The position numbers were made by a program, and so were the translations under genes. Shown piece after piece: positions 50,387-59,144 of a stretch of 64,000 bases of DNA. This DNA is from an uncultured Thermoleophilia bacterium (GTDB lineage: Bacteria > Actinomycetota > Thermoleophilia > UBA2241), in NCBI GenBank assembly GCA_963702475.1, contig CAVPCT010000002.1:128001-192000 (forward strand), read 5' to 3'. The number at the start of each line of letters is the position of its first letter. Position 1 is the stretch's first letter. The notes under the pieces were generated by a model. It saw nothing but the letters and a program-made list of their open reading frames with translations, did not search any database and had not been told where the DNA came from.

Positions 50387-50648
50387 GTGATCCCTTTTCT
50401 CAGGCTAGCGTCGTGACGGTTCCAGGTGCAGTGGGGCTGCGTCCGGACGCGCGATGCTATCACGCGCGCCGGAGATGGGGCAAACGCGCGTGGGGGAGGC
50501 GGCCGCGCGCGCCGCTGTGACACGGTGGTCAGGAACGTCCAGAGAACCACCCCATCGGGGTGAGGCACGCGTTCGCTTGCCGGGAGTACGGTGGCTGCAG
50601 GACGGGACACCGTCTCCCACGGGGAGCCGAACAGACGGGGTGGGGACC

Positions 50649-51302
50649 ATGGGACATCTGCGTAGGGTCGAAGCGTGTGCCGCAGCGGGAGCCGCCCTGA
50701 TCATCGTCGCCGTGGCGCTCACGCTGGCCGGGTGCGGTAGCCTGTCGGTCCCGGTGTTTCCCCCGCCGCCGACGTCGCTGCCCCCGTGGCCGTCCGGGGC
50801 AAGCCCCAGCCCGGCCGTGGCGTATCCGGTGCAGACCGCGACCATCGGAGGCACGCGCGCCGGGTGTGAGGGCTGGAGGTTCAAACCTACGGTGGACATC
50901 GAGGTCTCGGCCCTCGGCTTCTACGACGACGGACGGGACGGGCTCAGGAGCCCGCACCGTACGGCGATCCTCGACGCCGCTTCCGAGAAGACCGTCGTCG
51001 AGACCGTCGTCCAGGGCGGCAGCCCGCTCGAGGGGGCCTTCCGCTGGGAGTCAGTTGGACCCGTCGTCCTGGAGGCCGGGCACGAGTACGCGATGGTGTG
51101 GGACTGTCCCGCACCCGGCGACCCCCAGGTCCTGAACCCCGAAGACGCCTCCCTCGCGCTCGAGCTGCGCTACCTCGGCTACGGGGAGACCGCGAAGAGC
51201 GGACCGGCCTGGGGCCGCCCGGAGACCGGTGTGGAGAACGCCGTCCTCGCCGGCAACTTCAAGTACAGACCGGTGGCGGCCTCGAGCCCGTCGACCCAGT
51301 AG
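50649..51302 (+). CDS. Lipoprotein with a DUF4082-like beta-sandwich domain
   Basis: Lipobox LAGC, Pro-rich linker, GWRF.PTVDIEVSALGFYD...FRW...PVVLEAGHEY. Confidence 0.7.
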   Translation: MGHLRRVEACAAAGAALIIVAVALTLAGCGSLSVPVFPPPPTSLPPWPSGASPSPAVAYPVQTATIGGTRAGCEGWRFKPTVDIEVSALGFYDDGRDGLRSPHRTAILDAASEKTVVETVVQGGSPLEGAFRWESVGPVVLEAGHEYAMVWDCPAPGDPQVLNPEDASLALELRYLGYGETAKSGPAWGRPETGVENAVLAGNFKYRPVAASSPSTQ

Positions 51303-51420: not shown

Positions 51421-54400
51421 CTACCAGATCCAGGAGACCGGCTTCTCCGGGCCCAGCGTCACCTTGACGGTCATCGGGCGCCAGTAGTGACGGTGAAGTG
51501 CTTGCTGGGAGAGCCCTTCCGGTGCAGTCATAAGGGCACCGGACCTGAACCTGAGCGCGCTCACCGCGACCACGCTCCCCGGGGTCGCGTGCCGCAGGAA
51601 GCCGACCACGTCCTCCTCGGTGTACGTAGGCGTTCCGTCGAGCGCCAGCATGATGTCGCCGCCGACTCCGTACCACGAGCCGTCGTCTTGCACCCACTTG
51701 CCGTTGTACTTCAGGAGCTGCCGAGCCCCGCGAAGCCCGGCCTTGGCCGCAGGGCTGCCGGGCATGACGCCCCCGATCAGGATCCCCTGCTGCTCGCCAA
51801 GCCCGAACGACCTGGCCAGCTTCGTCCTGGTCGCCTCGGGCGTCAGGACACCCCAGTAATCGATGCCGAGCGTGACGGGCTGCGCATACTCCTGCATACC
51901 GCGCGCCACGCCGTCGACCGTGAAGCGGTAGTAGTTGACGCCCGTGGCGGCGCCGGGGCCTGCGAGCGCGCCCAGGTTCCTGTATCCGGTTGCCTCGGTC
52001 GCGTTCTTGTACCCGGGCCCCATCACGGCGATGAGGTGGCCGGTCGTGTCGACCAGTGCCCCACCCATCGGCGACTTCGTGGGGTTACTGGTGACCATCT
52101 GGAGGACCCGATGTTTGGAGCCAGCGACTGCCTGGGAGCCGCTGTACGTGGACAAGACGGTGCCGCCGGACCGCAGGAGCTCCCCACCCAATCGGCTCAG
52201 GCAGATGACCCGATCCCCCTTGCGGACCGAGTCGGAGTCCCCCTCGGGCATCGGCTGAAGGCGGAGCGAACCGGGGTCGACCTTGATCAAGGTGGTGGTG
52301 TCGTTCCCCGCCACGCATTTGATCTTGTAGCCGCGTAGCGTGTGATAGCTGCCATTGCCGTAGATCCCGACGGTGACGACCTCCGGGTCGATCAGGACCG
52401 GCCAGCGGCCCAGCGGGTCGTCGCTGGTGTAGATGAGTCCGTCCTTCGAGACGATCACGCCCGACTCGTGAACGCGCTTCCAGACGATGCGATGCTGCTT
52501 GTCGGCGACCCGCACCTTGGCGCTGATGTCGACGATGCTGTCCCCGTGCTTGTCGGCGATCTGCTGGGCGGTGAGCTGCACGGGCCCGGACGGCTCGTCC
52601 TGCGTCGTGGGCCTGAAGGCCACGACCGCGATCGCCGCGACGAAGGCGACGGCGATGACGGCAGTCGCGGCGACGAGGAGCGGCGCACGCCGCCGCAGGG
52701 TGCGTCGCGCGCGCCGCGAGAGGAAGAAGCGCCGCTTGGGCTTGGCGACCTCGGCGGCGACCCTCTCGGCGCGGGCGAAGTGGGCGGCCGCGGCGGTGGC
52801 GTCGAGCGGAGCCGCGCGTCCCCCGGCCAGCTCCAGGTAGCGGCTGGTGGGTCCGGCAAGCTCGTCCTCAAGCTCGAACAGCCCGCAGGCGGTGGCCATC
52901 TCCAGGGCCGTCGCGTAGTGGTAGGCGAGGATCTCGGCCATGTCCTCGGTGCGCCCGGCGGTGCGCTCCTCGAGCCACCTCGCGAGGGCGGCGTGCTTCG
53001 CGGCTCGGTCTGCGCGAGTGAGCTGCGCGTAGGCGACATCGCAGACGAGGGCGTGGATGAAGACGAACTCGGCCTCGCCCTCGATGGAGGAACTGCGCGC
53101 AGGCCGCACGAGTTCCTTGGCCACCAGCTCGTGCAGGCCCTCGAAGACCGCCGCCGGTCCCTCACCGCCCACAGCCGCCACCGCACCGGCCCAGAAGGTG
53201 CGTCCTACCACGGCGGCGTCGGCGAGCAGCGCCTTGCGCACGGGGCCGAGGAGGTCAAGGCGCGCGGCGATGAGGGCGCCTATGGAGCCCGGCGTGGGCA
53301 GCTCGGCCCCTTCCTTGAGCATCGTCTGGCCGCCGTGGGTGACGAGCAGATCGCCATCCTCCAGGAGGCGCACCAGCTCCTCGGCGAAGAGGGGGTTGCC
53401 GCCGGAGCGTTCGAGCAGGGTGGCCTGGAGCTTGACGGGCAGCGACTTGGCGCCCAGGCGGGCGAGGACGAGCTGCGCCGTCTCATCGCCGGAGAGGGGA
53501 CCGACGGCGATGTGCTCGGCGGCGGCGCAGAAGCCAGCACCCGCGCCGCTGCGCTCGAGGAGCTCGGGACGGGAGGTGGCGAGGATCAGCAGGGGAACCT
53601 CGGCGCTGCTCTGCGCGAGGTAGTCCATGAAGGCGAGCATGCCCTCGTCGGCCCAGTGCAGGTCCTCGACCACGACCACCGCGGGTCCCGCGGCGGCGAG
53701 ACCCGCGAGGAAGTCTCGCCAGGCGGCGAAGTTGTCCTCGCGGCCCGCATCCTCCGCCTCCAGACCGAGCAGAGGGCGGAGGCGGCCGCGCAGGCGGTCG
53801 CGGTCGGTCCTGTCGGCGAGGACGGCCTCGAGCCGCGCCTCCGTGCGCGCCACGCCGTCGCTGTCCAGGACGCCGGCCGAGTCTCTGACGATCTCCGACA
53901 GGGCCCAGAAGGTGACGTTGGAGCCGAACGGTAGGCAGCGGCCCTGGCGCCAGGTGACGACCTCGGGCCGCTCGTCGAGGCGGCGGGCGAACTCGGCCAG
54001 CAGGCGGCTCTTCCCGATGCCCGGTTCGCCGACGATCAGGGCGAACCGGGGATGACCGGTCTCGGCAGCTTCATCCAGGAGCTTGCGAAGCCCGGCGAGC
54101 TCCTCCTCGCGGCCGACGAATGTCGAGGCGAAACTGCGCAGCTCCGAGCCGGTACGCGCCAGGGGCGCGGTGGCGATCCAGGCTGCCAAGGGCGCGGTCT
54201 TGCCCTTGACGATGACGGGGTGGCAGGCCTCGAACGTGAAGATGCGCTCGGTGGCAGCGTGGGTGGCCTCCCCGACGGCTACAGCCATGGGCGGCGCGGC
54301 GGCCTGCAGGCGCGCGGCCACGTTGACGGCATCGCCGGTGAGAAGACCCTCGCCGCTTGAAGGATCGACATCGAGGGCGACCAGGACTTCGCCCGTGTTC

Positions 54401-54801
54401 ACCCCCACGCGCACCTCGACCGGCTGTCCGCCGATGCCCGGCAGGGCGTCGATCTCGTCGACCAGCCTCAGGGCGGCGCGCACGCCGCGCTCGGGGTCGT
54501 CCTCGTGCAGGGTGGGCACGCCAAAGACGGCCACCACGGCGTCGCCGATGAACTTCTCCACCGTTCCGCCATAGGCGTGCACCGCCCGCCGGGCCACCTC
54601 GTAGTAGCGGCGCAGAAGGGCGTTGACATCCTCGGGATCGTTCCGTTCCGAGAGGGCAGTGAAGCCGACGAGGTCGCAGAACAGGGTGGTGACCGTGCGG
54701 CGCTCCTCGAGGTGCGGTCGTGAACCCAGCAGCGCGCCGCAGTGCGGACAGGAGAGGACGGCCTCCGGGACGTCGCGACCACAAGAGGGGCAGGTGCTCA
54801 C
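51421..54801 (-). CDS. Zn-ribbon / class III adenylate cyclase / STAND (AAA_16) NTPase / TM / inactive trypsin-like (HtrA) domain / PDZ fusion
   Basis: CPSC..CPHC; LFCDLVGFT, EKFIGDAV, GDAVNVAARLQ; GEPGIGKS, VEDLHWAD, GGNPLF; TM LLVAATAVIAVAFVAAIAVVAF; SGVIVSKDG, GDSDSVRKGD, MGGALV; LGI, PGSPAAKAGLRG, GDIMLALDG. Confidence 0.88.
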   Translation of the reverse strand: MSTCPSCGRDVPEAVLSCPHCGALLGSRPHLEERRTVTTLFCDLVGFTALSERNDPEDVNALLRRYYEVARRAVHAYGGTVEKFIGDAVVAVFGVPTLHEDDPERGVRAALRLVDEIDALPGIGGQPVEVRVGVNTGEVLVALDVDPSSGEGLLTGDAVNVAARLQAAAPPMAVAVGEATHAATERIFTFEACHPVIVKGKTAPLAAWIATAPLARTGSELRSFASTFVGREEELAGLRKLLDEAAETGHPRFALIVGEPGIGKSRLLAEFARRLDERPEVVTWRQGRCLPFGSNVTFWALSEIVRDSAGVLDSDGVARTEARLEAVLADRTDRDRLRGRLRPLLGLEAEDAGREDNFAAWRDFLAGLAAAGPAVVVVEDLHWADEGMLAFMDYLAQSSAEVPLLILATSRPELLERSGAGAGFCAAAEHIAVGPLSGDETAQLVLARLGAKSLPVKLQATLLERSGGNPLFAEELVRLLEDGDLLVTHGGQTMLKEGAELPTPGSIGALIAARLDLLGPVRKALLADAAVVGRTFWAGAVAAVGGEGPAAVFEGLHELVAKELVRPARSSSIEGEAEFVFIHALVCDVAYAQLTRADRAAKHAALARWLEERTAGRTEDMAEILAYHYATALEMATACGLFELEDELAGPTSRYLELAGGRAAPLDATAAAAHFARAERVAAEVAKPKRRFFLSRRARRTLRRRAPLLVAATAVIAVAFVAAIAVVAFRPTTQDEPSGPVQLTAQQIADKHGDSIVDISAKVRVADKQHRIVWKRVHESGVIVSKDGLIYTSDDPLGRWPVLIDPEVVTVGIYGNGSYHTLRGYKIKCVAGNDTTTLIKVDPGSLRLQPMPEGDSDSVRKGDRVICLSRLGGELLRSGGTVLSTYSGSQAVAGSKHRVLQMVTSNPTKSPMGGALVDTTGHLIAVMGPGYKNATEATGYRNLGALAGPGAATGVNYYRFTVDGVARGMQEYAQPVTLGIDYWGVLTPEATRTKLARSFGLGEQQGILIGGVMPGSPAAKAGLRGARQLLKYNGKWVQDDGSWYGVGGDIMLALDGTPTYTEEDVVGFLRHATPGSVVAVSALRFRSGALMTAPEGLSQQALHRHYWRPMTVKVTLGPEKPVSWIW

Positions 54802-55117
54802 CGTTCTCGCCCCCCGTGAGGTGCCACGCTGGCTCTCCGCAAGCGCATGCGATCGGCCCCCAGGGAACTGCTTCGGATGAGTGTACCCATCGGTCAACGG
54901 TCCGGAGGGTACCGGCCTCTCAGGGCGCGCGCGAGCCCCCGCACGCCTGCCGGTGCCGTCTGAGACGGTCGGACCGTCCGGGAGGACGCACCACTGTGGA
55001 GGGAACCATCCAGCGGCCGGAATCCCCCAGCCGGACGACCTCATCCACCTCCGCCGGGAGGTTCCGGCGTGGGCTCTGTCCGGTAGGCTCGCCCACGAGC
55101 AGAGCAGGAGGAGTGCC

Positions 55118-56065
55118 ATGAGAGCGGTGGTGTGTCCAAGATACGGAGGGCCGGAGGTCCTCGAGCTGCGAGATGTGCCCAAGCCCAGTCCCAGGGACGA
55201 CGAGGTCTGCATCAGGATCACGGCGACCGCGGTGACCGCCAGTGACCTCTTCATCCGTGGATCCCGGATACCCCTGCGGTTCCGCATCCCGATGCGCCTC
55301 ATGATCGGCGTGATGCGACCGCGCCGATCGATCATCGGCCTGGTACTGGCGGGGGAGATCGAGTCGGTCGGCCGGGACATCAGGCGCTTCAAGCCCGGCG
55401 ACCACGTCTATGGCCTCACGGGGTTCAACCTCGGCGCCTACGCCGAGTACACATGTATGAAGGAGACCGACTCGACGCACGGGTGCCTGGCGTTGAAGCC
55501 GGCGAACGTGACGTACGAGGAGGCGACTGCGGCGGCCTACGGCGGGTTGCTGGCCCTGCAGGCACTGGAGACGGGTGATATCCGGCGCGGGCAGCGGGTG
55601 CTCGTGTACGGGGCCTCCAGCACGTCGGGGACGATCGCGGTGCAGTACGCGAAACATCTCGGGGCGCACGTCACGGCGGTCTGCGGCACCGCCAACGTCG
55701 AGCTGGCGCAGTCCTTGGGCGCGGACGCCGTTATCGACTACACGAAGGTTGACGCTCTCGCATCCGGCGAACAGTACGACGTCGTGCTCGACGCGGTCGG
55801 CAAGGCGAAGACGTCGAAGCTGAAGGAGTCGTGCCGAGCACACGTGTCCGGCGCAGGCAGGTACGTGTCGATCGACGATGGCAGCCTGCTGCTCGACTCG
55901 GGCCGGCTGACGCGGGTGAAGGAGTTGGTCGAGGCCGGAGCGATCAGACCGGTCGTGGACCGGTGTTACCCGCTGGACGACATCGCCGAGGCGCACAGGT
56001 ACGTGGAGCACGGACACAAACGCGGGGGAGTGGCGATTACGGTCGGGCACGAGGTCGTGGCCTGA
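55118..56065 (+). CDS. NAD(P)-dependent MDR-family oxidoreductase (zinc-independent)
   Basis: YGGPEVL, AGEIESVG, GAYAEY, VLVYGAS, AVQYAKHLGA, RPVVDRCYPL; RBS AGGAGGAG. Confidence 0.9.
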   Translation: MRAVVCPRYGGPEVLELRDVPKPSPRDDEVCIRITATAVTASDLFIRGSRIPLRFRIPMRLMIGVMRPRRSIIGLVLAGEIESVGRDIRRFKPGDHVYGLTGFNLGAYAEYTCMKETDSTHGCLALKPANVTYEEATAAAYGGLLALQALETGDIRRGQRVLVYGASSTSGTIAVQYAKHLGAHVTAVCGTANVELAQSLGADAVIDYTKVDALASGEQYDVVLDAVGKAKTSKLKESCRAHVSGAGRYVSIDDGSLLLDSGRLTRVKELVEAGAIRPVVDRCYPLDDIAEAHRYVEHGHKRGGVAITVGHEVVA

Positions 56066-56211
56066 CTGCCAGGACCGGCTGAGGAGGCCGGCGGGGCGCC
56101 CGCGGCGACTCAGCCGCGTCGACGGCCCGTGCGCCTTAGACGGCGCGGCCGGTCCGCCGTCCTCGAGGCGGCCGATGCGCCGCCTCCGCGCCGGTGGTAC
56201 GGTGGCCGGAG

Positions 56212-57393
56212 ATGATGATCCGGCCCCACAGACTCCGCGCATGGCTGCTCGCGGCACTCACGCTGGCCGCAGCCGGCGTCGCCGGTTGCGCCTCGCAGGC
56301 GAGCGGCGAGTCCGTGGCCGCGGTCGCGACCGGCGCGGCCGCGCTCCGGTCCTCGCCGGCGGCGCCGGTAGCGTCCTCGCCGGCGCCGAGCCTCGCTCCG
56401 CGCTCCGCGGTCGCCGGGTGGGGCGACCGCCGGCTGGCCGCGCAGCTGGTGATGTGCAGCGTGCCGGCGACCGACCCGCTCGCCGGCCGCAGGTACGTGC
56501 GCCTGGGCGTGGGCGGGATCGTGATCCTCGGCGCCGGGGCGCGCGGTGACATCGGCAAGGACCTGGCGTCCCTGCTCCGCACGGCGCCGCACGGCGTGAA
56601 GCCCTTCATCGCCAGCGATGAGGAGGGCGGGCAGGTGCAGCGGCTGCGGGATGTCATCTATCCGCTGCCGGCGGCCCGCGTGCAGGGCGGCTGGAGCGTG
56701 TCCAAGACGAGGTCCACCGCGAAGGACTACGGCGCCCGCCTGCGCAAGCTGCGCGTCTCGGTGGTGTTCGGGCCGGTCGCCGATCTGGACGTGCCCGGCC
56801 GCTACATGAGCTCGCTCGACCGCTGCTTCGCGTCGAAGCCCGACGACGTGGCGAGTCACGTCGTGGCCTGGGTCAAGGGGTTGGGGTCGTCCGGGGTGCT
56901 GGCGACGGTCAAGCACTGGCCCGGTCACGGTTGGGCGTCCGACACGCACGGTGGGGCGGCACGCATCCCCTCGCTCTCCAGGCTCCGCAGGGAGGACATG
57001 GTCCCCTTCGAGCGGGCCTTCGACGCCGGCGTGCCGCTCGTCATGGTCGGCCACCTGCAGTCGAAGGGCCTCACCGAGCCCGGCACGCCGGCGAGCCTCT
57101 CGCCCTCGGCGATGCGCTACCTGCGCGCGCGCGTGGGCGGGAGAACGGTCATCGTCACCGACTCGCTGTCCATGGCGGCGACCACCAAGGCGCTCGGGAT
57201 CGGCACGCCGGCGGCAGCGGTGCGTGCCCTCCAGGCCGGGGCGGACCTCGCGCTCTTCGCCTCGGCGGACCCGGACACGGTGATCGACGCCGTCACCGCG
57301 GCCATCAGGTCGGGGCGCCTGCCGCGGGCGCAGGCGGAGAAATCGGCGCAGCGCGTCCTGGAGCTCAAGCGACGGGCCGGCCTGGCGCCGTGA
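56212..57393 (+). CDS. GH3 beta-N-acetylhexosaminidase (NagZ-like) lipoprotein
   Basis: Lipobox VAGC; DEEGGQVQRL, PVADL, KHWPGHG..DTH, MVGH, TDSLSM. Confidence 0.9.
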   Translation: MMIRPHRLRAWLLAALTLAAAGVAGCASQASGESVAAVATGAAALRSSPAAPVASSPAPSLAPRSAVAGWGDRRLAAQLVMCSVPATDPLAGRRYVRLGVGGIVILGAGARGDIGKDLASLLRTAPHGVKPFIASDEEGGQVQRLRDVIYPLPAARVQGGWSVSKTRSTAKDYGARLRKLRVSVVFGPVADLDVPGRYMSSLDRCFASKPDDVASHVVAWVKGLGSSGVLATVKHWPGHGWASDTHGGAARIPSLSRLRREDMVPFERAFDAGVPLVMVGHLQSKGLTEPGTPASLSPSAMRYLRARVGGRTVIVTDSLSMAATTKALGIGTPAAAVRALQAGADLALFASADPDTVIDAVTAAIRSGRLPRAQAEKSAQRVLELKRRAGLAP

Positions 57394-57563
57394 GGCCGAG
57401 CCTGTCGACCGCGTGCGCGCGCTCGCCGGTCGCGTGACGCCCGGCCGTACCTCAGTACGGGGGTACGCGCCCGCCCGGCTTTGCTAGACTCCGCGCCGGC
57501 GCCGGACATCGCGCCGGCAGCGCCGGGCAGTAGTCTGCCGCCGGCGGTCGAATCAGAGGACTC

Positions 57564-59144
57564 ATGAGCGACCACAAGCGCAAGCTCGCCCTCGCGGCGG
57601 TCATCGTCGCCTCCGCGACCGCCGTCTCGCGTCTCACCGGTCTGGGGCGCGAGGTGATCACGGCGGCGTTCTACGGCGTCGACCCCTCGTACAACACCTT
57701 CGTCTCGGTCTCGGTGATCCCGCAACTCGTGCAGCAGCTCTTCGCCGACGCGGCGATCAGCGCCGCCTTCGTGCCGGTGTTCACGGCGCTGCTCGCGAAG
57801 GGCGAACGCGAGCGGGCGTTCCGGCTGGCCGCGAACCTTCTCGGCCTCATCGTCGTCGTCGTGGGCGTCGCCGTAGCCCTGCTCGTCCTGTTCGCCGATC
57901 CGCTCACCGCGTGGATGTATCCGGAGCTCACGGCGACGACGGCCGGCGCCGAGCTTGCCGCACAGCTGCTGCGCATCCTCGTGCCGACCATCCTCTTCCT
58001 GTCGCTGGCCGGCGCCATCAGCGGCGTCCTCTACTCGCTCGAGCGCTTCACCATGCCCGCGGTGGTCTCCATCGTCTGGAACCTGACCATCATCGCCTCG
58101 ATCCTGCTGTTCCAGGAGTCGCTCGGCGTCGAGGCCATCGCCTGGGGCATGCTCGTCGGGACCGTGCTGGAGGTCGTCCTGCTGGCCGGCACCATGCGGC
58201 GCGCGGACCGCTGGCTCTGGCCGGGCTTCGGTCTGCGCGACCCGCTGCTCGGCAAGGTACTGCTCCTCATGGTGCCGATCACGATCACGCTCGGCGTGTT
58301 GAACTTCAACGCCCTCATCGGCACCTGGTTCGCCCAGTTCGTCAGCGACAGCGCGGCGGCGGAGATCGGCTACGCCTTTCGCCTGTACCAGCTGCCGCAG
58401 GGCATCTTCGCTGTGACCATCGGCACGGTGCTGTTCCCGTCGCTCTCGCTCTTCGCGGCCGAGCACGACGAGGTGCGCTTTCGCGAGACGGTCTCCTTGG
58501 GCGTGCGGCAGATGGTCTTCGTCTCGCTGCCCTTCGTGGCGTGGTTCCTGGTCATGCCCGGGGCCTTCGTGCGGCTCGTCTACCAGCGCGGCCAGTTCGA
58601 CGCGCAGGCCACGTCCGAGGTGGCGGCGGCCCTCGCCTTCTTCGCCGTGGGCCTGGCGTTCGCCAATGCCAACATCATGTTCAACCGCGCCTTCCAGAGC
58701 ATGCAGCGGCCGCTGCTGCCGATGTACGTGAGCTTCGGCAACCTCGTCGTCAACGTGCTGCTCTGCTGGGCTCTCTACAGACCGCTCGGCGTGGCCGGCA
58801 TCACGCTGAGCATGGCGACCGTGTCGGCCGTGAACTTCGTCGCCCTGTTCGTGCTCCTGCGGCGGCGCGTGGGGCGCATCGACGGCCGCCGCATGGCCGG
58901 CGCCGCCGGCGGAGCCCTGGTCTGCGGCGGCGCGCTGGCGGCCGTGTCCTACGGCGTCTGGCGTGCTCTGCAGGGGTTCGCCGCCGGCGGCTTCTGGCCG
59001 CTGCTCGTGAGCGTGCTTGCGGCGGTGGCCGCCGGCGGCGCGGTCTATCTCGTCTTCGCGCGCCTGCTCAGGCTGGAAGAACTGGCCGTCGTGCGGCAGG
59101 TGCTGCGTCGACGTCGGCGCCGCGGGGTCGACGTCGCCGGCTGA
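57564..59144 (+). CDS. murJ: Lipid II flippase MurJ
   Basis: SRLTGLGRE, AFVPVF, RLYQLPQGIF, YQRGQF; about 14 TM. Confidence 0.94.
   Translation: MSDHKRKLALAAVIVASATAVSRLTGLGREVITAAFYGVDPSYNTFVSVSVIPQLVQQLFADAAISAAFVPVFTALLAKGERERAFRLAANLLGLIVVVVGVAVALLVLFADPLTAWMYPELTATTAGAELAAQLLRILVPTILFLSLAGAISGVLYSLERFTMPAVVSIVWNLTIIASILLFQESLGVEAIAWGMLVGTVLEVVLLAGTMRRADRWLWPGFGLRDPLLGKVLLLMVPITITLGVLNFNALIGTWFAQFVSDSAAAEIGYAFRLYQLPQGIFAVTIGTVLFPSLSLFAAEHDEVRFRETVSLGVRQMVFVSLPFVAWFLVMPGAFVRLVYQRGQFDAQATSEVAAALAFFAVGLAFANANIMFNRAFQSMQRPLLPMYVSFGNLVVNVLLCWALYRPLGVAGITLSMATVSAVNFVALFVLLRRRVGRIDGRRMAGAAGGALVCGGALAAVSYGVWRALQGFAAGGFWPLLVSVLAAVAAGGAVYLVFARLLRLEELAVVRQVLRRRRRRGVDVAG

Follow-up and report, generated by a model that had tools for sequence, protein, structure and literature searches.

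A 64,000-nucleotide window from an uncultured Thermoleophilia bacterium (assembly GCA_963702475.1, contig CAVPCT010000002.1, positions 128,001 to 192,000) carries a gene whose product is read here, on balance, as a membrane receptor. In this protein an HtrA-type protease domain without its catalytic triad, predicted to lie outside the cell, is joined through one transmembrane helix to a nucleoside triphosphatase (NTPase) of the STAND class (signal transduction ATPases with numerous domains) bearing a class III nucleotide cyclase. The minus strand at 51421-54801 of the window forms a single open reading frame (ORF) of 1126 aa plus stop, with a GTG start at 54801. The frame stays open further upstream for 197 extra codons (54802-55392, minus strand). 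Because relatives begin at the same MxxCPxCG as the window protein or further in, and none extends upstream, 54801 is the likely start, and the additional open frame is most likely the non-coding excess usual in DNA of 70% G+C. The features of the gene, including its tetratricopeptide-repeat (TPR)-like helices, are as follows.

51421..54801, minus strand: whole ORF, 1126 aa plus stop; start common to relatives
54733..54795, minus strand: Zn ribbon, residues 3-23, CxxC...CxxC (Pfam); optional, present in 8 of 33 family members
54187..54705, minus strand: class III nucleotide cyclase, residues 33-205 (Pfam, catalytic residues)
53584..54123, minus strand: STAND NTPase core AAA_16, residues 227-406 (Pfam, Walker motifs)
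54007-54030, minus strand: Walker A, G258-S265
53647-53679, minus strand: Walker B, around E379/D380
52747..53583, minus strand: helical arm/winged-helix region and first TPR-like helices, residues 407-685
52687..52746, minus strand: polybasic juxtamembrane stretch, residues 686-705 (11 K/R, 0 D/E)
52615..52686, minus strand: single transmembrane helix, residues 706-729 (hydropathy, model)
51886..52569, minus strand: HtrA-like pseudoprotease domain, residues ~745-972 (Pfam, fold, alignments)
52417-52419, 52297-52299 and 52066-52068, minus strand: former triad codons D795, T835 and M912
51454..51879, minus strand: PDZ domain, residues ~975-1116; carboxylate-binding-loop motif L-G-I at 979-981

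Profile searches support this domain order. Guanylate_cyc (residues 33-205, 75.2 bits, Pfam cut-off 21.9), AAA_16 (residues 227-406, 88.3 bits, cut-off 32.6) and PDZ_6 (residues 1009-1037, 30.7 bits, cut-off 27) are all recognised, and the Zn_Ribbon_1 and UPF0547 profiles at residues 3-23 fall under their cut-offs, yet a CxxC...CxxC arrangement is present there. A preliminary description of this DNA, made from the letters alone, had given the same single ORF of about 1126 aa with Zn ribbon, cyclase, STAND NTPase, polybasic stretch, transmembrane helix, protease fold and PDZ, and its motifs and coordinates are all right. The STAND region (residues 221-690) gave no match at E 0.01 among PDB sequences. 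The NCBIfam model TOMM_kin_cyc (TIGR03903) matches residues 32-638 with 243.8 bits against a cut-off of 705.75; since the match covers only profile positions 283-890 of 1267 and lacks the kinase domain, identity with the TOMM system kinase/cyclase fusions was rejected. Over residues 730-1039 the weak NCBIfam matches are to degP_htrA_DO (38.7 versus a cut-off of 416), DegS (32.1 versus 423) and MamE.

The fusion is not confined to one assembly. Residues 690-1126, searched against proteins 619-1971 aa long, gave 45 matches, 34 of which (window protein included) carry cyclase, AAA_16 and Trypsin_2 domains in 1060-1137 aa; one further match has cyclase, AAA_16 and PDZ. The automatic Joint Genome Institute (JGI) name of these proteins is 'class 3 adenylate cyclase/S1-C subfamily serine protease'. 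When one genome per species was scanned, 38 loci emerged, of which 10 match to residue 1084 or beyond; these all lie in metagenome bins labelled uncultured Thermoleophilia, Actinomycetota or Actinomycetes, apart from one labelled Gemmatimonadales. The frame is uninterrupted, at 1084-1136 aa, in 6 of these 10 long loci and interrupted or cut in the other 4. Across 41 genomes (the window's own, 24 of the same genus and 16 of the same class), matches run past residue 1080 in four, all of the same genus (G000, G014, G019 and G022), and G008 and G015 hold high-identity N-terminal fragments. In a search for shorter proteins with the same ectodomain, all 19 matches at E <= 1e-15 are contig-end fragments of this family. 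Public contigs of relatives or strains aligned to the gene are short pieces only; one of 146 nt covers 52513-52658, and none spans the whole transmembrane junction. Because the fusion recurs in many independent assemblies, the architecture is judged from these sequences to be real and not an assembly chimera, one of the outcomes that the preliminary description had named as fatal to its proposal. The full-length member in the Gemmatimonadales-labelled bin (L021) may reflect mis-binning or gene transfer.

The membrane segment is defined by both hydropathy and charge. The hydropathy scan of the window protein finds just one hydrophobic segment (19-residue Kyte-Doolittle mean, KD19, > 1.6 for stretches starting at 704-716), and its flanks differ strongly in charge, residues 686-705 holding 11 K/R and 0 D/E and residues 730-750 holding 1 K/R and 3 D/E. 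Both measures agree with the polybasic stop and single transmembrane helix placed earlier at ~52615-52690. According to the positive-inside rule, the basic flank of a transmembrane helix stays cytoplasmic, so the N-terminal 700 residues are predicted to be cytoplasmic and the C-terminal 390 to lie outside, giving a putative single-pass, N-in/C-out topology. In the polybasic stretch, all 33 sequences keep R691, L694, R696, R697, R699, R700, L702 and R704, an invariance suggesting that the stretch does more than set the topology. The sequence KRRFFLSRR within 52687-52746 (minus strand; RRWLLSRR in relatives) resembles the twin-arginine RRxFL motif. An internal twin-arginine translocation (Tat) motif was considered; ten basic residues before a very hydrophobic helix appear unlike Tat signals.

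The ectodomain adopts the HtrA protease plus PDZ fold in structure prediction, in agreement with the trypsin-like domain and PDZ first proposed for it. For residues 731-1126, AlphaFold2 with a 40-row alignment of the family gave a model (mean predicted local distance difference test score, pLDDT, 82; predicted template modelling score, pTM, 0.83) with two beta-barrels and, after them, a PDZ-like alpha/beta unit. Foldseek against the PDB returned Deg1, AlgW, DegP, DegQ, DegS, HtrA2 and Mycobacterium tuberculosis HtrA1 at E 1e-19 to 1e-15, with template modelling scores of only ~0.4-0.5 because the two ectodomain domains sit at differing angles, and phmmer against PDB sequences reached DegP at 1.6e-6. 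A search of the ESM Atlas yielded generic S1C/DegS clusters only.

Alignment with active HtrAs confirms that the window protein has lost the catalytic triad, and none of the 33 aligned relatives has it either. HtrA TN-x-H-V reads TSDDPL, with D795 in place of His; D-L-A-V reads TTTLIKV, with T835 in place of Asp; and G-N-S-G-G reads SPMGG, with M912 (codon 52066-52068) in place of Ser. In alignments to DegP S210A chains, M912 falls on the mutated serine. Over the 33 full-length relatives, the His is kept in 1, the Asp in 4 and the Ser in none, no sequence having all three, and the Ser column holds T in 12, L in 6, V in 4 and A in 3, the rest being other residues. The triad columns vary even between closest relatives. 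The oxyanion-hole G913 is invariant (33/33), and the invariant ectodomain positions as a whole are glycines plus a few structural residues. The window genome contains three further HtrA genes with intact TNAHV, DVA[VL] and GNSGG motifs, which score 126 bits against Trypsin_2 in a comparison within the genome, versus 31 for the window protein; the window protein is thus not needed for proteolysis. By alignment and predicted fold, the ectodomain is classed as an HtrA-fold pseudoprotease derivative that fails the HtrA family in both its catalytic residues and its profile scores.

Both cytoplasmic enzymes, in contrast to the triad, look active to judge from their conserved residues. The best PDB relative of the cyclase domain is Cya2 (2w01, E 3.8e-22), and the metal-binding D43 and D87, together with the adenine-type Lys K83, R131 and the transition-state residues N160 and R164, align with solved class III cyclases. 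D43 is conserved in 32/32 relatives, D87, K83, R131 and N160 each in 33/33, and R164 in 30/33. The STAND NTPase is intact, as proposed (AAA_16, 88.3 bits), with Walker A K264 and Walker B D380 each present in 33/33. The window genome has 8 cyclic nucleotide monophosphate (cNMP)-binding domain matches, 2 of them close (a few kb at most) to other cyclase-STAND paralogs, so readers for a cyclic nucleotide signal exist in the genome.

Same-genome paralogs indicate which part the membrane module stands in for. Contig 3 carries L005 and L003 in tandem (1130 and 1158 aa; G000:C3:739774-745292); they are 52% identical to the window protein (over residues 2-706 for L003 and 2-678 for L005) and then run on as ~450-aa TPR arrays. 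The similarity of the window protein to such TPR-type paralogs stops at ~residue 706, and the window protein has no C-terminal repeat sensor array, its helices reaching only to 686 before the transmembrane segment. The polybasic stretch, transmembrane helix and dead HtrA-PDZ unit therefore occupy the place of the TPR sensor, and the earlier view that only a stub of the array is left is borne out by the long array that the paralogs have at that place. TPR-type genes reach 18 matches per genome in the genus. A second membrane-type copy in the same genome (G000:C5:918318-921517, minus strand; L002/L007) has a 76% identical N-terminal part and a 66% identical C-terminal part; it shifts frame at ~residue 915, within the protease-like domain, and is either a pseudogene or an assembly error. 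The tandem L005/L003 genes encode a Zn-ribbon-cyclase-STAND-TPR order and have a cNMP-binding-domain gene ~3 kb downstream (C3:748531). Another cNMP-binding gene adjoins a frameshifted TPR-type paralog at C5:908734-912627.

The two sides of the membrane diverge at different rates. In the 33-row alignment, mean pairwise identity is 81.5% for the cyclase, 73.9% for the NTPase, 78.9% for the arm and 75.0% for the polybasic stretch plus transmembrane helix, whereas the ectodomain has 35.4% (minimum 24%). Nei-Gojobori (NG86) estimates of nonsynonymous (dN) and synonymous (dS) divergence against 5 intact loci agree with this pattern: the cytoplasmic part gives dN 0.13-0.22, dS 0.62-0.76 and a ratio of 0.18-0.32, and the ectodomain dN 0.26-0.81, dS 0.5-1.1 and a ratio of 0.5-0.8, the method being rough at 30-35% identity and with dS near saturation. 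For comparison, a genuine HtrA of the window genome and its best matches in 5 same-genus genomes share 62-68% identity. By this measure the cytoplasmic side of the receptor has changed less than a housekeeping protease, and the outer side much more. At least five well-supported ectodomain classes can be told apart, and there are genomes with two copies. This fast divergence lends the proposed sensor role of the ectodomain added support at the sequence level.

The same ectodomain is also found with a different output. A profile-free ectodomain search of 1.84 billion representatives gave 1401 matches, mostly ordinary HtrAs; the closest were fragments of the same family plus P0058, in which Pfam recognises TIR_2 (a Toll/interleukin-1 receptor, TIR, domain), Trypsin_2 and PDZ. 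P0058 and two further clusters, P0212 and P0213, are 550-553 aa long, share 67-83% identity and come from separate assemblies, P0212 lying on a 67.5-kb contig. Each has a short basic stretch, one transmembrane helix, a triad-less HtrA-like ectodomain and a PDZ. They thus share the polybasic-transmembrane-pseudoprotease-PDZ module with the window family, whereas their cytoplasmic part is a 120-aa TIR domain and not cyclase-STAND. Their layout is like that of a Toll-like receptor, with the topology inverted. A quick maximum-likelihood tree was built from 25 cyclase-STAND ectodomains (the cutting pattern missed 8 of the 33), 3 TIR ectodomains and 5 active HtrAs. In it the pseudoprotease ectodomains all cluster together as a group apart from the active HtrAs (Shimodaira-Hasegawa-like approximate likelihood ratio test, SH-aLRT, 100), and the TIR ectodomains nest inside this group, beside one cyclase-STAND class (SH-aLRT 91). 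On this tree the triad was probably lost once, and the module probably moved between output domains later. Re-use with a TIR output gives further support to a sensor role for the ectodomain.

Taken together, these observations point to a single-pass receptor whose external pseudoprotease/PDZ unit binds a peptide or protein and gates a STAND-driven cyclase, a reading that we hold to be moderately probable. Outside, the catalytically dead HtrA-type domain and its one PDZ would act as the binding module for the ligand; inside, the conserved polybasic helix and transmembrane segment would join this ectodomain to the STAND NTPase with its N-terminal class III cyclase. Ligand binding would alter the clustering or oligomeric state of the ectodomain, the conserved juxtamembrane helix would relay the change, and nucleotide-dependent oligomerisation of the STAND would be released or promoted. 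That oligomerisation would bring the cyclase domains together as dimers, and a cyclic nucleotide, probably cAMP, would be made and then read by the cNMP-binding proteins of the genome. Class III cyclases need dimers, and class III cyclase and TIR both need self-association to act; since this holds for both known outputs, a clustering mechanism would fit. Of the pseudoprotease sensor receptor put forward in the preliminary description, the fold, the triad loss, the recurrence and the replacement of the TPR array are upheld, while topology, ligand, oligomerisation as a trimer or otherwise, cAMP as product and signalling across the membrane are what we infer for the window protein.

Several observations weigh against this reading, and the receptor model as a whole is deduced from sequence and predicted structure. 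The Trypsin_2 match (residues 780-926) scores 26.7 bits, just below the Pfam cut-off of 27.6. The AlphaFold2 model of the full-length protein (33-row alignment) has a pLDDT of 63.9 and a pTM of 0.39, with the cyclase and juxtamembrane parts below 50, and at this low confidence it says nothing on coupling between the parts. The symmetries do not match, an HtrA trimer facing a cyclase dimer. The family ectodomains show no conserved polar residue that would mark a shared binding site, and the L-G-hydrophobic loop of the PDZ is kept in the window protein and most of the 33 relatives, several having L-D-x or L-A-x instead. The raised dN/dS of the ectodomain could reflect relaxed constraint and not adaptive diversification. 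At the second base-specifying position of the cyclase, which is Asp or Thr in adenylyl cyclases and Cys in guanylyl cyclases, the window protein has L153 (aligned with RhGC C566) and 30 of 33 relatives have Phe, so the product cannot be read from the sequence. The intact adenine-type cyclase claimed earlier accordingly stands for its metal Asp residues, K83 and N-x3-R motif, and its adenylate reading is made less certain by this partner residue. Finally, no neighbouring gene is shared by the window and the 10 related loci, only scattered pairs recurring among loci; with no recurring neighbour to hint at a pathway, the receptor gene appears to stand alone.

The same machine could instead serve as an immune receptor for the outside, the dead protease acting as fast-evolving bait or decoy for an invader protein (for example a toxin against surface HtrA, an inhibitor of proteases that is secreted, or a phage receptor-binding protein), and the STAND-cyclase or TIR triggering defence. 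We consider this role unlikely, though it has real points in its favour. The ectodomain is the part that changes (35% identity versus 74-82% elsewhere; dN/dS 0.5-0.8 versus 0.18-0.32), it comes in at least five classes with two copies in some genomes, and STAND and TIR are typical immune modules, the TIR replacing cyclase-STAND on the same ectodomain clade. PycC models of PADLOC also recognise the cyclase, scoring up to 59 bits, yet this is weaker than its Pfam cyclase match (59 versus 75 bits) and would be expected for any class III cyclase. An adjacent effector gene, a conserved neighbourhood and a match to any other defence-system model are all absent, no phage or inhibitor partner is known, and soluble TPR paralogs abound (a single genome can have 18 matches), much as members of regulatory families do. 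A related version, which we find a little more doubtful still, sees the family as transmembrane surveillance receptors resembling nucleotide-binding leucine-rich repeat (NLR) proteins, with a diversifying pseudoprotease as 'integrated decoy' and a cyclic nucleotide or TIR as output. If it is true, the TIR proteins would give prokaryotes an equivalent of the Toll-like receptor layout (ectodomain, transmembrane helix, TIR), and in the cyclase form a STAND protein would have its sensor placed outside the cell. We know of no STAND protein with such an extracellular-sensor layout.

The two remaining alternatives deny the ectodomain a sensing role. It could be an anchor, localiser, oligomeriser or holdase in a membrane-tethered cyclase whose STAND answers a cytoplasmic cue. 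HtrA proteins also work as proteolysis-independent chaperones, which favours such a role, as does the ectodomain's lack of conserved ligand-site residues, and the polybasic stretch and transmembrane helix are as conserved as the cytoplasmic part (75%), consistent with a constraint mainly on anchoring. On the other hand, the cytoplasmic TPR sensor of the paralogs is missing here, leaving no obvious cytoplasmic input domain; a plain anchor would not need a folded domain of 390 aa kept open in >30 diverged sequences; and the same ectodomain has been re-used with a different output domain. These points make the anchor rather improbable. It is more improbable again that the ectodomain is a decaying remnant of a fusion, or a cryptic catalyst with an unconventional nucleophile (Thr at the Ser position in 12/33). 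Its raised dN/dS, the free variation at its catalytic positions, the same-genome paralog frameshifted within the protease-like domain and the interrupted frames at 4 of the 10 related loci would fit decay, yet dN/dS stays under 1, the fold-defining glycines are invariant (G913 in 33/33), AlphaFold2 folds the ectodomain confidently from the family alignment, and ~390 codons are open in 6 of the 10 loci and in 30-odd database proteins. The interrupted frames come from metagenome bins and may be assembly errors. As to catalysis, the Thr has no His partner in 32/33, and the window protein has Met at that position, not Thr.

Comparison with characterised proteins shows that each half of the candidate receptor has known relatives. 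The cytoplasmic half is that of the actinobacterial cyclase-STAND-TPR proteins, represented in this genome by L003 and L005, which share the N-terminal class III cyclase with or without Zn ribbon, the AAA_16 STAND and the helical arm. M. tuberculosis Rv0386, Rv1358 and Rv2488c are examples of this type, the mycobacterial ones adding a LuxR helix-turn-helix. These proteins are soluble and carry a ~450-aa TPR array, whereas the window protein has a stub, the polybasic stretch, the transmembrane helix and the dead HtrA-PDZ. The outer half is close to DegS and AlgW, which are top Foldseek and NCBIfam matches and have an N-terminal membrane anchor, an extracytoplasmic chymotrypsin fold and one PDZ. 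The PDZ of DegS and AlgW senses C-terminal peptides. To signal, DegS uses its intact His-Asp-Ser triad to cleave RseA, whereas the window protein has D/T/M at these positions and, as output, a cytoplasmic enzyme fused to it. Animal receptor guanylyl cyclases such as NPR1, whose cyclase domain matches that of the window protein at E 1.9e-10, are likewise single-pass, with an external ligand domain, an internal nucleotide-binding regulatory module and a class III cyclase. The logic is analogous, the ligand controlling the activity of the cyclase dimer, but topology and domain order are opposite, the regulatory module is a kinase-homology domain and not STAND, and the ectodomain is unrelated. MamO (PMC4794232) is an HtrA-family pseudoprotease repurposed for metal binding in magnetosome biomineralisation, and so offers a bacterial membrane protein whose HtrA/trypsin fold has a non-catalytic role without proteolysis; it binds metal, and it has no cyclase or STAND fusion. 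A MamO-like metal site was sought in the window family and rejected, the ectodomain having no conserved His or Asp, neither a His pair nor another polar site.

A literature search found no description of the combination of cyclase, STAND, transmembrane helix, HtrA-like domain and PDZ, in line with the earlier statement that the architecture was undescribed, the supplementary architecture tables of large STAND surveys (PMC7159879, PMC8195603) lying outside the search. PMC7159879 reports that cNMP cyclase and trypsin-like domains co-occur in vWA-MoxR systems, a different architecture; PMC6411480 makes no mention of cyclase, AAA_16, Guanylate_cyc or inactive, and in PMC2447327 matching terms stand in the reference list alone. 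What appears to be new is the putative membrane receptor layout; the core is known as the cyclase-STAND group and the ectodomain as the HtrA fold.

Such a layout matters because STAND/NLR-type switches are thought of as cytoplasmic sensors. Replacement of the repeat sensor by a membrane span and an outside domain would extend this switch class to transmembrane signalling. The family would also illustrate clearly how a protease fold can be turned into a receptor, one dead module being wired to two oligomerisation-dependent outputs, cyclase-STAND and TIR. The conserved inside and fast-diverging outside point to a receptor family of many specificities, within an uncultured actinobacterial lineage on which hardly any experimental work exists.

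The surroundings of the gene in the window are mixed. Upstream and divergent lies a gene resembling zinc-dependent alcohol dehydrogenases and quinone reductases (54881-56065), and further upstream, 1.4-4 kb from the receptor gene, a glycoside hydrolase family 3 (GH3; NagZ-like) gene and murJ (56194-59144, plus strand). GH3 and murJ are cell-wall genes and are not found beside the related genes elsewhere. Downstream, a convergent ORF without family occupies 50454-51302. PADLOC gave generic PycC (<=59 bits) and TIR matches and no other defence-system model. Membership in the Pycsar cyclases (PycC) was rejected, as the PycC matches are weak and the neighbours are not cNMP-activated effectors, none of them being conserved.

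Three other proteins show similarity to the ectodomain. P0062 (402 aa), a lipoprotein-like HtrA relative, keeps the His and Asp motifs (TNDHVV and DLAVIRV), with Thr replacing the Ser. In its C-terminal half it lies near the window family, and it could be either an intermediate or a chimera arising in the metagenome. In two very long proteins, P0051 (3239 aa) and P0061 (2764 aa), an ectodomain part of ~80 residues (~138-225) is matched in 28 and 25 stretches, respectively, which look like a repeated half-barrel unit.

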